Shown: positions 17,679-25,268 of the stretch, piece by piece | How the letters are laid out: each line of letters begins with the position of its first letter | How positions within the stretch are numbered: position 1 is the first letter of the stretch | From: a virus | Taxonomy: Duplodnaviria > Heunggongvirae > Uroviricota > Caudoviricetes | Length of the DNA: 64,000 nucleotides | IMG/VR virus record: IMGVR_UViG_2703718861_000013 | Reading direction: 5' to 3' (one strand) | Position numbers and translations under genes: made by a program | Notes under the pieces: model-generated | Seen by the model: the letters and a program-made list of their open reading frames with translations, nothing else | The model's database searches: none | What the model was told of the DNA's origin: nothing

Positions 17679-18705
17679 TTATATTTTTTCGATCTCGACC
17701 AGATTAGTGTGCTGCGGGTTTCCCTTCGCCAGTGGTGAAGGGCGCAGAGTGGTTAGCGTATTCACACAGCCGCCATGGTCGATTTTATCGCCAGACATAT
17801 TGGCCTCGTGCCAGGCTCCCTGGCCCATAGCGCTAACTCCAGGGAGAATACGTGGTGTTACTTTGGCTGGTAGCCGAACTTCGCCACGATGGTTAAACAC
17901 CCGCACCATATCGCCGTTGGCAATCCCACGTTTCTGCGCATCTATAGGGTTGATCCACACCTCCTGACGGCAGGCAGCCTTCAGGAGATCAATATTGCCG
18001 TAGGTCGAGTGAGTACGGGATTTGTAATGGAAACCAAACAGTTGCAGTGGGAAGGTTCTACGTTCAGGGGAGTCCCAGCCTTCAAAGGTAGAGGCATAAA
18101 CTGGCAGTGGGCTTATCACTTCATCTTTTTCCAGTTCCCAGGTACGGGCAATTTCCGCCAGCTTGCTGGAATAAATTTCAATCTTACCGGAAGGTGTTTT
18201 AAGTGGATTTGCCTCGGGGTCGTCACGAAATGCTTTGTAGGCGACAAAATGACCATTGGGATCTTTACGCTTATAGATACCCATTTTTTTCAGTTCGTCG
18301 TAAGACGGTAACGCCGGATCTTTGGCAAGCATTTTGGCGTACAGATGTTGTAACCATTGTTCCTGCGTGCGACCTTCAGTGAACTTTTGATAGACGTCAG
18401 GTCCAAGACGTTTCGCGACTTCACTCAGGATCCAGTAAATCGGTTTGCGTTCGAATTTTTCGCTGGTGACAGGCTGGAGGAAAATGAGATATCCCATGTT
18501 ACCGGCGTAGTCGTTAGGAATAATATCTTCCTGCTCAACGGTCATCAGGTCTGGCAGCAGAATGTCGGCATATTTTGCCGATGAGGTCATAAAGTTTTCG
18601 ATGACCACAATCATTTCGCATTTCGATTCGTCCTGCAGAATTTCATGCGTTTTGTTGATGTCAGAATGCTGATTAACGAGGGTATTTCCCGCGTAGTTCC
18701 AGATG
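17679..18705 (-). pseudogene. ynfE: 3' part of ynfE, separated from its 5' part by the 6.5-kb insertion
   Basis: Frame reads ...IWNYAGNTLVNQHSDINKTH... to a normal C-terminus; upstream codons are element-derived. Confidence 0.85.
18695..18705. repeat. left copy of 11-bp direct repeat agttccagatg (candidate att core)
   Basis: Identical 11-mer at 25258-25268; both lie at the ynfE/element junctions. Confidence 0.6.
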
Positions 18706-18770
18706 GACTCCATTGTCAGACGGATGGATGGACTTGAAGTAGTTGACTCAATGCTACTTAAGGTCCTGAT

Positions 18771-20354
18771 ATGACTGACATTAACCATGATAATACTGTA
18801 TATCCATCCAGTTCTTTCTCTGGGTCTCCCTATCTGTATCAGCAAGTCTGCACCTCAAGTCCTGACACAAGGCTGACACAAATCAATCTACTCAGCGTAG
18901 CTAAGCCTCAGTTAGTCCGTAGAGCCAATGGTCGATATACTATCCGCTTCAGACTCAAGGGACAGACCATCCCGTTTCTTTCAGTATCGACCCGAAGCAC
19001 AGACAGGAGAGTAGCCACAATGCGTCAGAGAGAGCTTGCAGCCACAGCTAAGTCCTTCATGTTGGATAGGCCTGATGTCTCGCTACAGGAGCTTACGGAC
19101 CACCTCCGGTCTATGGCTGAGCAGTTCCTGACAGACGCCAGTGATGACTACTGGAATGGACTTGAGGTCGCTACTCTGGTGGACGAGAAGTCCAACCTGA
19201 AGGAGCTAGCCGCTACGCAAGCCTTGAGTCTGGACCAGCAGAAGGGCATAAGGTTAGCGCTTGAAGTCCTGACCGCAGCACAGCAGAGGGTAGACACTGG
19301 TGATGCCTCTGGTCTGATTAAGCTGATTGATGATAATAACCATACTGATTACTCAACTATAGGCGACTCTACGTCAATTCTGAAGAATGAGCAGGGGGAT
19401 AGACCAGCAGTTTTCACACAGGAGCGTCAGCCATCTGTGGTTTTTTCAAGCCTAGTGTCCTCGCTGCTGGCTGAGAAGGTCCAGACCCTGAAGTCCTCCA
19501 GCTACAAGGACCTGTCGTCCTCACTGAATACCGTCTCTCGGTTCTTACCTGAAGACATGGACCTGATGTCCCGCTCTGAGTGGCTGGCTGTCAGGGACTC
19601 CATGCTGGCTGCTGAGGTGAGACCATCGACAATCAACAAGCTGCTGACTAAGGCGAAGATGTGTCTTGATTATGGCCTGATGAATGGGCAACTTGAGGGC
19701 CGCAACCCTATTGAACGGATGAAGCTGACCAAGGATATCGACTCCAAGCGCAGAGCGTTCACAGACGAGGAGCTGGAGAGACTTCTGGTCCGTGTTGAGT
19801 CTGAGTATCAGTTCACACGACACACGGCTCACACGACCTCTGAGGCCCGTAGATGGGCGTCTCTGGTGTCTGTGGTCACTGGCGCGAGGTCTGCTGAAGT
19901 CTGCCACCTGACTAAACGTGACATTGTCACCTTAGACAACGGTTTAACCTGCATCGACATCAATGAAGATGGGGACGGTAAGTCTGTGAAGAACAAACAT
20001 TCAGTCCGACTTGTACCGCTGACCGATGGGGCCTGTGGGTTCGACCTGAAGTCCTTCCTTGAATGGGTAGACACGCAGCCTGACGACGGCGGTCCTCTCT
20101 TCGGGATGACTCCGAGCGCCTACTCTAGCTGGTTTAACTCTAGGGTCCTGACTGAGGCACTGGGAGACGCTGAGAACGTTTCTCTCCATAGTCTGAGGCA
20201 TTGGCTGGCGACCCGAATGAAAGAGCGTGGAGTCAATCTGGTGGACGCTCAGGGCATCTTAGGCCATAGCAGTCAGTCAATTACGTATGACCTGTACGGG
20301 AAAGGACACGCTGTTGGTAGGCTGGCTGAGGTGCTGAAGACAGCTTTACTTTAA
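18771..20354 (+). CDS. int: tyrosine recombinase (integrase); start codon uncertain
   Basis: C-terminal R...HSLRHWLATRM...GHSSQSITYDLYG signature; arm-type repeats overlap the 5' end of the longest ORF, so the true start may lie downstream. Confidence 0.85.
   Translation: MTDINHDNTVYPSSSFSGSPYLYQQVCTSSPDTRLTQINLLSVAKPQLVRRANGRYTIRFRLKGQTIPFLSVSTRSTDRRVATMRQRELAATAKSFMLDRPDVSLQELTDHLRSMAEQFLTDASDDYWNGLEVATLVDEKSNLKELAATQALSLDQQKGIRLALEVLTAAQQRVDTGDASGLIKLIDDNNHTDYSTIGDSTSILKNEQGDRPAVFTQERQPSVVFSSLVSSLLAEKVQTLKSSSYKDLSSSLNTVSRFLPEDMDLMSRSEWLAVRDSMLAAEVRPSTINKLLTKAKMCLDYGLMNGQLEGRNPIERMKLTKDIDSKRRAFTDEELERLLVRVESEYQFTRHTAHTTSEARRWASLVSVVTGARSAEVCHLTKRDIVTLDNGLTCIDINEDGDGKSVKNKHSVRLVPLTDGACGFDLKSFLEWVDTQPDDGGPLFGMTPSAYSSWFNSRVLTEALGDAENVSLHSLRHWLATRMKERGVNLVDAQGILGHSSQSITYDLYGKGHAVGRLAEVLKTALL
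18863..18881 (+). repeat. two direct copies of tgacacaa (arm-type site candidates, left end)
   Basis: ctgacacaaggctgacacaaa; three further copies at 25170-25200. Confidence 0.5.
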
Positions 20355-20361
20355 GTAGGAA

Positions 20362-20409
20362 GACCCAAGGTGGAGACCATATACGGCTTGATGGTTGAGA
20401 CCTTGGGTC
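20362..20409 (+). other. perfect 9-bp inverted repeat (gacccaagg / ccttgggtc) with 30-nt spacer just after int
   Basis: Read directly; possible terminator or RNA processing hairpin. Confidence 0.4.
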
Positions 20410-20712
20410 ACTGAAGTCTGACTGAAGTTAGGGAGGGTGATAATAATCATAATCCCTCCTGACTATAGGCCCACTGGTTCGCCTTCGGCTGTCAGACTCT
20501 AAGTCTGTATGTGGTCTTATTTAAACTGGTTCCCTAACTCCAGTACTCCAAATTCCTATGGTCTCCTCTTGACATTCCTGTTTAACTGTGAGTCGCCTCT
20601 GGTCTCTCTTTATATATACTTCCTTAATTCCTGAGGCGTCTTTAGTCCTTGACATCCAGTCCAGCCTGTGAGTCACATCCTGTCGCGCTACTGTATGCAT
20701 CACCAGTGATGG

Positions 20713-20735
20713 ACTTGATTATCACTATAGGGGAA
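20713..20735 (+). promoter_or_regulatory. T7-class single-subunit RNAP promoter-like motif A
   Basis: ttgattatCACTATAGGGGaacc; 11/13 match to the T7 core CACTATAGGGAGA; 35 nt upstream of the RBS of the 122-aa ORF. Confidence 0.5.
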
Positions 20736-20764
20736 CCAACTAATTCAACTACAGGAGATACTCT

Positions 20765-24380: not shown

Positions 24381-24385
24381 GACCA

Positions 24386-24625
24386 ATGGGTAAGAGCATT
24401 AGTAAAGGCTTCAGGTCCATCGCCAAGGGCCTGACAGGTGGTGGTGGGACTCAAGGTGGGGCTTCGGTCCCGCCTCCTGTAGCTCCTCCTGTAGCTCCTC
24501 CAGATGACGCTCAGCAAGCTGTAGTCGATACCCAAGGTCAGGAGACCGAGGGAGGTAAGACCATGAGCAGAGGTAAGTCTGGACTGAATATCAGCAGGAC
24601 TTCAGGTGGTGGCCTGTCACTGTGA
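24386..24625 (+). CDS. small Gly-rich protein resembling T7 gp7.3-type virion protein
   Basis: MGKS... start and ...RGKSGLNISRTSGGGLSL end resemble T7 gp7.3 (MGKK... / ...GKKSLSVARSSGGGINI) as I recall it. Confidence 0.45.
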   Translation: MGKSISKGFRSIAKGLTGGGGTQGGASVPPPVAPPVAPPDDAQQAVVDTQGQETEGGKTMSRGKSGLNISRTSGGGLSL

Positions 24626-24863
24626 TTAAGACATCTATACAGCCTGTGGAGGGTGGACGATATCAAGCAACAATCTGGATGACACGCAGAGTCTATAAGC
24701 GGCTATGCTGGTCACTGGCTGAAGCTGAACAGTGGGTGAGACGTAAAGTGCCTACCGTTCAATCGTTCCAATCATCATGATAACTATGGTCTGGACCAAT
24801 GGTCTGGACCTTTGTTTTGTACTAGTTATCTAGTGCAGTAGTACAATAGACGAAGGAGGCTTT

Positions 24864-25019
24864 ATGTCTATGACTTCCGCAGACCTAAGGTCCCTCCTGA
24901 CTCTGGTCTATAAACTCGTGTTCCTCTCTGTGGGTCTCTATATGGTCCTCTCCGGTCGACTCGGTGTGAATGTATTCGACACTCTGTCTAAGGCTGTGGG
25001 TGGGCTTCTGGGGGCTTAG
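24864..25019 (+). CDS. small hydrophobic protein (51 aa)
   Basis: GAAGGAGG RBS then ATG; MSMTSADLRSLLTLVYKLVFLSVGLYMVLSGRLGVNVFDTLSKAVGGLLGA. Confidence 0.35.
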   Translation: MSMTSADLRSLLTLVYKLVFLSVGLYMVLSGRLGVNVFDTLSKAVGGLLGA

Positions 25020-25169
25020 GTTTGGACTCACAGTGGGACCGATGGTTTCTGACAGAAAAATGTGAATGACCATCTAATACATTAAGCCAGCAGACTTCCC
25101 CCATAGCCCGCCTCAAGTCCAGACCGAGGCCACCGGGGGGCTGACCAGCCGTCTAGACATCCCGTCTAA

Positions 25170-25200
25170 TGACACAAGGCTGACACAAAGCCTGACACAA
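25170..25200 (+). repeat. three direct copies of tgacacaa with ~11-bp phasing (arm-type site candidates, right end)
   Basis: tgacacaaggctgacacaaagcctgacacaa. Confidence 0.5.
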
Positions 25201-25257
25201 AGTCCTTGACTCAATGCAGGACCTCAGGCCTACTAAGGGTCCGCTTCAAGTCCTTGA

Positions 25258-25268
25258 AGTTCCAGATG
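25258..25268. repeat. right copy of 11-bp direct repeat agttccagatg (candidate att core)
   Basis: Identical to 18695-18705. Confidence 0.6.

Follow-up and report, generated by a model that had tools for sequence, protein, structure and literature searches.

Few lytic phages have been studied as thoroughly as the T7-like phages, which also see wide use in phage therapy and biotechnology. In one study (Chung and Hinkle, J Mol Biol 1990), T7 reportedly replicated plasmids that combine a T7 origin with a T7 concatemer junction and packaged them into transducing particles; the junction-bearing plasmids are said to have been packaged as phage-length concatemers. The cf-PICIs, which are ~14 kb long, encode a portal, a protease, head-tail connectors, and a small terminase/HNH, and they take only tails from their helpers, which are temperate (bioRxiv 10.1101/2022.09.08.507074, PMC10803314). 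PICMI of the Vibrionaceae is ~6 kb long, with minimal genes and a virulent helper, and is packaged as a concatemer to the size of the helper genome; its core is int, alpA, and a primase gene, it has no capsid gene, its insertion site adjoins fis, and headful packaging gives it random ends (PMC10803314). The TIGER survey includes an uncharacterised integrative element that targets the gene ynfE (Mageeney et al., NAR 2020, PMC7192596). The element in this report is a 6,563-bp insert that interrupts ynfE in IMG/VR virus record IMGVR_UViG_2703718861_000013, of which a stretch of 64,000 nucleotides (nt) was analysed and is called the window. We consider it, with a probability of roughly 0.7, to be an integrative satellite of virulent K1F-type (Kayfunavirus) T7-like phages. 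The TIGER entry means that the existence of a ynfE island is already known, and the element listed there is probably of the same class, an integrase island inactivating ynfE; the survey gives the target gene only, with no content, helper, or mechanism (PMC7192596). As far as our searches show, the content and likely helper of the island appear to be undescribed in the open-access literature. We found no description of satellites of T7-like phages in open-access papers or preprints, which is not proof of their absence.

The insertion itself is well defined. The ynfE frame lies on the minus strand, and its N-terminal part (open reading frame [ORF] 25211..26668) stops at ...IKFIWN and is followed by foreign sequence, while the C-terminal part (ORF 17679..18845) restarts at ...IWNYAGN. 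At its borders, the element (window positions 18695-25268) has 11 bp of ynfE sequence in duplicate, the 11-mer AGTTCCAGATG, present at 18695-18705 (attL core) and at 25258-25268 (attR core). When the two flanks were joined by one copy of the 11-mer, the rebuilt 313-nt empty site was 100% identical to, and contiguous within, annotated ynfE. The unbroken empty site, with a single copy of the 11-mer, is found in 5,113 of 5,426 complete E. coli genomes, and element DNA, chromosomal in every case, is found in 313; since the two counts add up to all 5,426, the 11-mer is native ynfE sequence that was duplicated by the insertion. A sequence-only reading of this stretch had proposed a ynfE gene cut in two by an integrase-bearing element with the same 11-mer at both junctions, and had suggested comparison with an insert-free ynfE; the frames, the reconstruction, and the intact site in 5,113 genomes all agree with it. 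Related elements form two clades, one with this ynfE core and the other at the 3' end of tRNA-Gly(CCC) with the core TCCCTTCGCCCGCTCCA, and the integrases of the two are only 30% identical. In E. coli 47-1826 (positions 1-889 of the extracted locus), the 3' fragment of ynfE to the left of the element is shortened further and abuts phage tail protein genes, which indicates that a second insertion adjoins the element there.

The first line of evidence for the helper comes from phage-type promoters. The sequence ACTATAGG occurs at four sites in the window, all of them within the element and on the plus (coding) strand, and none of 100 shuffles reached four sites. Promoter 1 (GACCCTAAACTATCACTATAGGGAGACCA, 21139..21167, plus strand, predicted +1 near 21159) fits the consensus CT(A/T)A(A/G)CTATCACTATAGG, which was drawn from nine K1F promoters, and is directed toward the genes. 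Its segment 21143-21167 (CTAAACTATCACTATAGGGAGACCA) is identical at 25 of 25 positions to the capsid-gene promoter of K1F, EcoDS1, and many other Kayfunaviruses; the EcoDS1 counterpart is annotated as “promoter,” and Kayfunavirus genomes carry ~8 copies each of a site of this type. Promoter 2 (GGACTTGATTATCACTATAGGGGAACC, 20710..20739, plus strand, predicted +1 near 20730) is nearest to the rightmost (phiOR-position) Kayfunavirus promoters, with two changes in the specificity region, and is present in 15 of the 26 elements of the first, ynfE clade. A non-coding leader 3' of promoter 1 (21168..21394, plus strand) is conserved at 78 to 85% column identity across 26 elements, among which it contains no conserved ORF, and is marked by two copies of GACC(G/T)CCTCTGTCAGAC, at 21255-21271 and 21402-21418 in the window and at 4171 and 4342 in locus L008; the pair is kept in a relative with a different cargo gene. 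This leader is a candidate origin, primed by transcripts of the helper polymerase, or may be an mRNA leader. Scans of the element for sigma-70-like promoters and for terminators gave no difference from shuffles, and the simplest reading is that the structural operon would be silent until a helper RNA polymerase arrives.

The second line of evidence is DNA that resembles phage termini. We searched the whole window with the 1.1-kb junction region (right end, terminal repeat, and left end) of K1F or Pisces, and significant matches fell within the element only, with the phage orientation kept. One of the regions is a hairpin (20432..20467, plus strand) homologous to the hairpin that lies, in the phages, ~130 nt downstream of the rightmost Kayfunavirus promoter; identity is 28/28 with Pisces and IMM-002 (20432-20459), 32/32 with phiYIO1-1, where the sequence is inverted, and 22/24 with K1F 38985-39008. 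The stem of this hairpin is common to K1F 38985-39008 (L003) and phiYIO1-1 40046-40077 (L004), and its inner part is flipped in phiYIO1-1 and Esher7 relative to K1F, Pisces, and IMM-002, the element having the Pisces orientation. A longer region, 25024..25252 on the plus strand, resembles the last ~50 nt of right-end unique DNA followed by terminal repeat, with the equivalent of the left boundary of the repeat at ~25073. It aligns with Pisces at a score of 106, compared to 31.1 ± 5.5 for shuffles, and with K1F at 79, compared to 29.0 ± 5.3; it also has BLAST matches in the repeat regions of several Studiervirinae and is conserved in relatives. The sequence GGACTCACAGT at 25026 was considered as the counterpart of the phage left end TCTCACAGT and was dropped, since the alignment puts that counterpart at ~25073.

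At the element's opposite end, 18811..18861 (plus strand) aligns with the final ~19 nt of the repeat and the initial ~33 nt of left-end unique DNA, scoring 52 with Pisces (shuffles, 22.2 ± 2.3) and 39 with K1F (shuffles, 21.7 ± 2.1), and the Pisces match coincides with where its direct terminal repeat is annotated to end. The scores of the two halves thus lie 8 to 14 standard deviations over shuffles. Within the family, TCTCTGGGTCTCCCTATCTGTA is invariant in 25 of 26 elements and TCTCCCTATCTGTA in 26 of 26. The left-end segment contains TCTCCCTATCTGTAT, which resembles the pause signal of the T7 concatemer junction; we take that junction to read ...CCCTATCTGTT..., with ATCTGTT as a class II pause signal. 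In the integrated state, the 25024-25252 half lies at the right end and the 18811-18861 half at the left end, so that excision would join both across attP into a junction-like unit of ~320 bp, with transcription in the phage direction. In the tRNA-Gly clade, the terminal-repeat-like DNA lies directly 3' of the capsid gene and TCTCCCTATCTGTAT lies ~670 nt inside an unrelated integrase gene, which again places the junction halves at opposite ends of the element.

The third line of evidence is structural genes. The product of orf331 (23385..24380, plus strand, likely start ATG at 23394) has no family in Pfam, PHROGs, or NCBIfam, and a PDB sequence search with the capsid profile was empty. A first AlphaFold model, made from a shallow alignment of close homologues, had a predicted local distance difference test score (pLDDT) of 45 and was unusable. 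An exhaustive hidden Markov model search brought in 64 relatives down to ~21% identity, and an AlphaFold2 model calculated with 37 sequences reached a pLDDT of 84.3 and a predicted template modeling score of 0.79. The top 50 PDB matches of this model are all HK97-fold capsid proteins or encapsulins, with a probability of 1.00; the matches, of which 219 have E<=1e-3, include the phi29 prohead, T5, Kp9, LME-1, and encapsulins, and every named match in BFVD is a capsid or head protein, again with a probability of 1.00. The order of secondary-structure elements (helix 37-58, strands 67-129, helix 139-166) fits an N-arm helix, E-loop, spine helix, and A and P domains. On the strength of the predicted structure, orf331 is an HK97-fold major capsid protein. 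A Big_2 domain, of a kind common on capsid proteins, is carried by one family member. Directly upstream lies orf163 (22818..23309, plus strand), a core gene whose product has a charged helical middle; it is conserved in both clades, and an ORF of ~155 to 165 amino acids occurs upstream of the capsid gene in distant islands too. By this position only, it is a putative scaffolding protein. Neither sequence nor profile-profile comparison revealed similarity of orf331 to K1F-type gp10, and orf163 likewise showed no homology to helper gp9, profile-profile comparison included, so the capsid module does not derive from the helper lineage.

The product of orf79 (24386..24625, plus strand) is a homologue of T7-group gp7.3, a virion assembly and adsorption protein, with 40% identity to K1F gp7.3 (BLASTP, E = 1e-14) and a match to phrog_1320 (“host range and adsorption protein”) at 1.8e-11; its match to PF11653, at 17.6 bits, is under the gathering cut-off of 25. 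It is the only protein of the element with a homologue in the helper. The sequence-only reading had reported no replication, terminase, portal, or tail gene, and none is found by Pfam, PHROGs, or NCBIfam, which also revealed no protease, tail-tube, or lysis gene. Structural genes are present all the same: that reading had overlooked the capsid and gp7.3 genes; at the level of cis-acting sequence, its att repeats hold up, and the phage-type promoters and phage-terminus-like sequences had escaped it. Its view of a hitchhiker that needs a helper is supported, and strengthened, by the promoters, the junction-like ends, gp7.3, the capsid, and a size-constrained family with two integrases.

Relatives of orf331 were found in Shigella, Leclercia, Citrobacter, Enterobacter, Buttiauxella, and Rouxiella and on 60 metagenome contigs, so that, with Escherichia, the family has members in at least seven enterobacterial genera. 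Near-identical copies occur across genera; the Leclercia capsid protein, for example, is 97% identical. Phage-type promoters, orf55, orf163, and the capsid gene are common to both clades, and distant capsid homologues (43 and 32% identity) lie in small islands with an integrase and, further along, an ORF of ~160 amino acids and the capsid gene. Core-to-core length is 6,609 ± 113 bp in the ynfE clade (range, 6,321 to 6,828; n = 26) and 6,331 ± 103 bp in the tRNA-Gly clade (range, 6,134 to 6,447; n = 15), three longer copies of 7.6 to 7.9 kb having been excluded from these statistics. Length is thus tightly held despite swapped modules. Shigella flexneri SFBU1023 (CP182556.1; L010 and L016) has two members, one in ynfE (7.7 kb, with a split integrase match) and one of the tRNA-Gly type, and the copy seen there is also present in E. 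coli ECMA0423 (L013).

Promoter specificity varies within the family. The K1F type, CTAAACTAT-CACTATAGG, accounts for 44 sites and the CTTGATTAT type for 17, with fewer sites of the TTATACCCT, GGTACA, ACCCAC, and other promoter types, and several members have tandem promoters of two specificities, 26 nt apart. For the TTATACCCTCACTATAGGGA type, the matching promoters are multi-copy ones of T7-like phages of Enterobacter, Cronobacter, and Shigella. Such a pattern is what one would expect if promoters were selected for recognition by different helper polymerases. Tandem pairs in which ..ATACCCTCACTATAGGGA.. is followed by ..CTAAACTATCACTATAGGG.. are seen in L011 (5477-5530 and 6029-6083), in L012 and L018, and in several ynfE-clade contigs, and in some ynfE-clade members an additional upstream promoter has been acquired where the window has its promoter 1. 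The relative with 43% capsid identity (L021), which has the same chromosomal neighbourhood in another genome, is interrupted by IS66; at 3267-3432 and 6442-6578 it has the promoters GGTACACTATAGGGAGA and ACCCAC(A/G)CTATAGG, each on both sides of the IS66. One phage record, PQ520054.1 (“Enterococcus phage IME_EF3,” 7,785 bp), matches an Enterobacter T7-like sequence where phage BHUENT8 does, and looks mislabelled or like a fragment of an enterobacterial phage.

These features suggest the following cycle. The element sits in ynfE, inserted by its tyrosine integrase at the 11-bp core, and would remain silent there. On infection, the single-subunit RNA polymerase of the helper would read the promoters of the element, and the whole plus-strand gene set would be transcribed; the helper would in this way be sensed by promoter mimicry and not by relief of a repressor. 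The integrase would then excise the element as a circle, and excision would create a copy of the helper concatemer junction, made up of pre-repeat DNA, terminal-repeat-like DNA, attP, and a repeat end with ATCTGT. T7-type origins are promoter-primed. Because the element has no replication gene, we infer that the helper replisome would copy it into concatemers, with priming probably from the helper-polymerase promoters, and the helper terminase (gp18/gp19) would package the DNA at the junction mimic. Shells would be built from the HK97-fold capsid protein and putative scaffold of the element and completed by the portal, core, and tail of the helper and by the element's own gp7.3. Packaging might take either of two forms. 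About six head-to-tail copies could fill a helper-sized head, 6 × 6,609 bp being 39.65 kb, compared to 39.70 kb for K1F; alternatively, one copy could be packaged in a small shell, and the possession of a capsid gene argues for this second form. By rough volume arithmetic, a T=3 shell holding a T7-type core would fit ~6 kb.

Several observations weigh against this proposal. A foreign capsid protein on a helper portal has no shown precedent here, and no origin, excisionase, or scaffold was identified in the element by homology. The repeat-like region is ~320 bp in the ynfE clade and ~880 bp in the tRNA clade, compared to 178 to 190 bp in the phages; it would include attP and part of the integrase ORF, and its identity to phage termini is only 70 to 80%. 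Because the ATCTGT motif falls within the reading frame of the integrase (SPYLY in both clades), its conservation is due in part to coding constraint. Searches of metagenome and viral contig collections did not turn up the attP junction, and the element is absent from phage records by megablast of the element and by tblastn of orf331 and orf79, the miss of orf79 being probably due to the low-complexity filter. Three IMG/VR matches look like stretches of bacterial genome records that were predicted to be viral, and there is no sequencing record of excision, replication, or packaging. Two candidate kinds of free form were rejected: among capsid-gene contigs of ~6.4 to 7.3 kb, two are ordinary chromosomal fragments, and the element-length metagenome contigs of 6.2 to 6.9 kb (L028, L029, L043, L048-L051, L054, and others), considered as circles, each extend ~20 to 100 nt into ynfE or tRNA flank on both sides. 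These flanks identify the latter as assembly bubbles from presence/absence polymorphism, and occupied and empty sites thus co-occur in the samples, through a mixture of strains or through excision.

The remaining genes and repeats add to the description of the element. As the sequence-only reading had it, all long ORFs are on the plus strand, nine of them in the element, with a tyrosine recombinase gene near the left end. The integrase gene (18771..20354, plus strand; 527 amino acids as the longest ORF) matches PF00589 at 1.8e-13 (51.1 bits; cut-off, 27.1) and phrog_1 at 3.3e-42, and its translation has the motifs TGARxxE (TGARSAE) and HxxR (HSLRH) and a C-terminal Y (LYGK); the same frame is annotated by PGAP in relatives. 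Directly 3' of its stop, a 19-bp inverted repeat forms a strong hairpin (20362..20409, plus strand; the RNA fold of 20355-20500 has z = -3.9). A 12-mer common to both ends, TTGACTCAATGC, is found twice in the window, at 18743..18754 and 25206..25217 (both plus strand), and none of 100 shuffles reached two copies; each copy is a candidate integrase binding site. The tgacacaa-type repeats that had been noticed at both ends, TGACACAA, number five in the 64-kb window, in two arrays adjoining the att cores: two copies at 18863..18881 with 11-bp phasing, invariant in 26 elements, and three at 25170..25200 with 11- to 12-bp phasing, both on the plus strand. Their count by itself is not above chance, at least five copies being found in 13 of 100 shuffles, and it is their clustering that stands out. 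They may be integrase arm sites; alternatively, they could be counterparts of the short repeats that flank T7-group terminal repeats.

Three ORFs on the plus strand are of unknown function: orf122 (20765..21133), the core gene orf55 (22554..22721), and the accessory gene orf52 (24622..24780). The first matches phrog_23123 at 1.1e-8, and its phage homologues are only weak (22 to 32% identity) and are hypothetical proteins of N4-like, 7-11-like, and Aeromonas phages, not T7-like ones. The second occurs, at 53 to 100% identity, in the majority of complete family loci, whichever integrase type they have, and the aligned stretch is identical in some tRNA-Gly elements (L013, L016, and L017). Following orf52 are a terminator-like hairpin and T run, seen by consensus scan only (24788..24820, plus strand), and orf51 (24864..25019, plus strand), which encodes a small hydrophobic protein just before the terminal-repeat-like DNA; K1F has an ORF of ~53 amino acids at the matching relative position, a correspondence of position only, homology not being shown. 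A scan of the element with Rfam gave no match. The segment from gp7.3 to orf52 varies among relatives, as does the slot between the promoters and orf55, which holds KilA-N, Rha, or AP2 domain proteins. In the window the slot starts with two 44-nt direct repeats (21423-21466 and 21619-21662, within 21423..21662 on the plus strand), which are 95% identical and 196 nt apart, with small palindromes in each, upstream of a KilA-N domain gene (21794..22552, plus strand; PF04383 at 1.3e-9, phrog_129). The segment that holds the repeats varies in step with the KilA-N gene, and the repeats may be binding sites of the DNA-binding protein of the slot; they were also considered as a conserved origin and dropped as a family feature, because the region varies among relatives.

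The variable slot bears on the alternative that fares best, namely, that of an anti-phage island spreading by some means other than carriage by phages, its promoters acting as infection sensors and its capsid-like protein and gp7.3 as decoys that poison assembly. Phage-type promoters would give infection-specific expression, the KilA-N, Rha, and AP2-type proteins would suit such a role, and the KilA-N protein has a weak match (5.9e-7) to the PADLOC candidate PDC-S22. Known satellites interfere with their helpers too, so the two readings overlap. We nonetheless consider a purely defensive island unlikely, as it leaves unexplained why junction-like halves are split across att in two clades with different integrases, why the size distribution is narrow, and why near-identical copies such as the Leclercia one occur across genera.

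A generic integrative island with an unrelated helper, or with none, in which the T7-like motifs are functionless recombination debris, would accord with the ynfE entry for an uncharacterised integrative element in the TIGER survey (PMC7192596) and with the lack of a packaged form on record among phage records and metagenome and viral contigs. The motifs are conserved, oriented, and non-random, however, and the phage specificity of the complete promoters differs between lineages, a sign of selection and not of debris; we regard this explanation as improbable. Slightly less probable again is a decayed remnant of an integrated temperate T7-like podovirus that kept its integrase, promoters, ends, and a few structural genes. 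The promoters, terminus-like DNA, and gp7.3 are indeed of T7-group origin, and some Autographiviridae carry integrases, LUZ100 being one (PMC10134795). Such decay does not account for the uniform size and intact ORFs of 41 independent copies, for the same core on two integrase backbones, or for a capsid and putative scaffold that lack homology to T7-group gp10 and gp9 even in profile-profile comparison, nor is there pseudogene debris of an RNA polymerase, DNA polymerase, portal, or terminase. A mobile encapsulin-like nanocompartment operon, with orf331 as the shell and its neighbours as cargo, can be set aside almost entirely: encapsulins are among the top fold matches of orf331, but phage capsid proteins match it as well or better, one family member has a Big_2 domain, and the phage promoters, gp7.3, and terminus-like DNA make the context viral.

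If the satellite reading is true, ~6% of complete E. coli genomes (313/5,426) host a parasite of T7-like phages, and Shigella, Citrobacter, Enterobacter, and Leclercia carry one too. Such an element could cut phage yield, shift DNA between genera in lytic infection, and affect therapy cocktails. It would sense its helper through promoter mimicry, with stacked promoters serving several helpers, and its packaging site would exist solely in the excised form. It would also be the smallest known satellite to encode a capsid, raising the question of how a foreign capsid engages the portal, terminase, and tail of another phage. Its small, defined parts are attractive for the engineering of T7-based transducing particles.

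Some general features of satellites are present in the element: its own integrase, defined 11-bp att ends, an empty site, and the lack of a gene set for an autonomous cycle. It does not carry the defining gene sets of PICI/SaPI, cf-PICI, P4-like, or PICMI elements. No domains matching AlpA or a master repressor, a primase-replicase, terS, ppi, or cpm were found with Pfam, PHROGs, and NCBIfam, and no family matches to a P4-type alpha primase-helicase or to sid, psu, or delta were found with Pfam and PHROGs. We lean, by a small step beyond an even chance, toward a new minimal satellite family of 6.1 to 6.8 kb, the first for the T7 group, that would combine sensing by promoters, swapped or stacked to suit various helpers, a junction split by attP, and its own orphan HK97-fold capsid and scaffold, built into shells on the portal and tail of the helper, with no replication or packaging gene, and that would use virulent T7-like helpers in Enterobacteriaceae.

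Among described systems, the likeness to cf-PICIs lies in an HK97-fold capsid of its own, used instead of re-sizing that of the helper, carried with an integrase in Enterobacteriaceae; unlike cf-PICIs, the element is only 6.56 kb long and has no portal, protease, connector, or terminase gene, and its cis signals suggest that its helper is a virulent T7-like phage. With PICMI it shares small size, a minimal gene set, and, if our reading is right, a virulent helper, and the length of six copies is near that of the K1F genome; marine VEIMEs, like PICMI, use the multi-copy concatemer route of packaging. The element differs from PICMI in having no alpA or primase match, in its capsid gene, its promoters for a helper polymerase, and its site-specific junction mimic, and in its ynfE and tRNA-Gly sites. 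Ccm of SaPIbov5, TcaP of PLE, and Sid of P4 are alike in that a satellite factor decides which capsids form. Ccm is itself described as a capsid-protein homologue (PMC8569155); it is recognisably homologous to the helper capsid protein and co-assembles with it, whereas orf331 is unlike gp10 and has its own putative scaffold. The T7 plasmids with an origin and junction are close in principle, as the same minimal cis requirements, a phage-polymerase promoter origin and a junction, would apply to the element. Those plasmids are laboratory constructs, whereas the element is natural and integrating, would have its junction only after excision, and has its own capsid gene.

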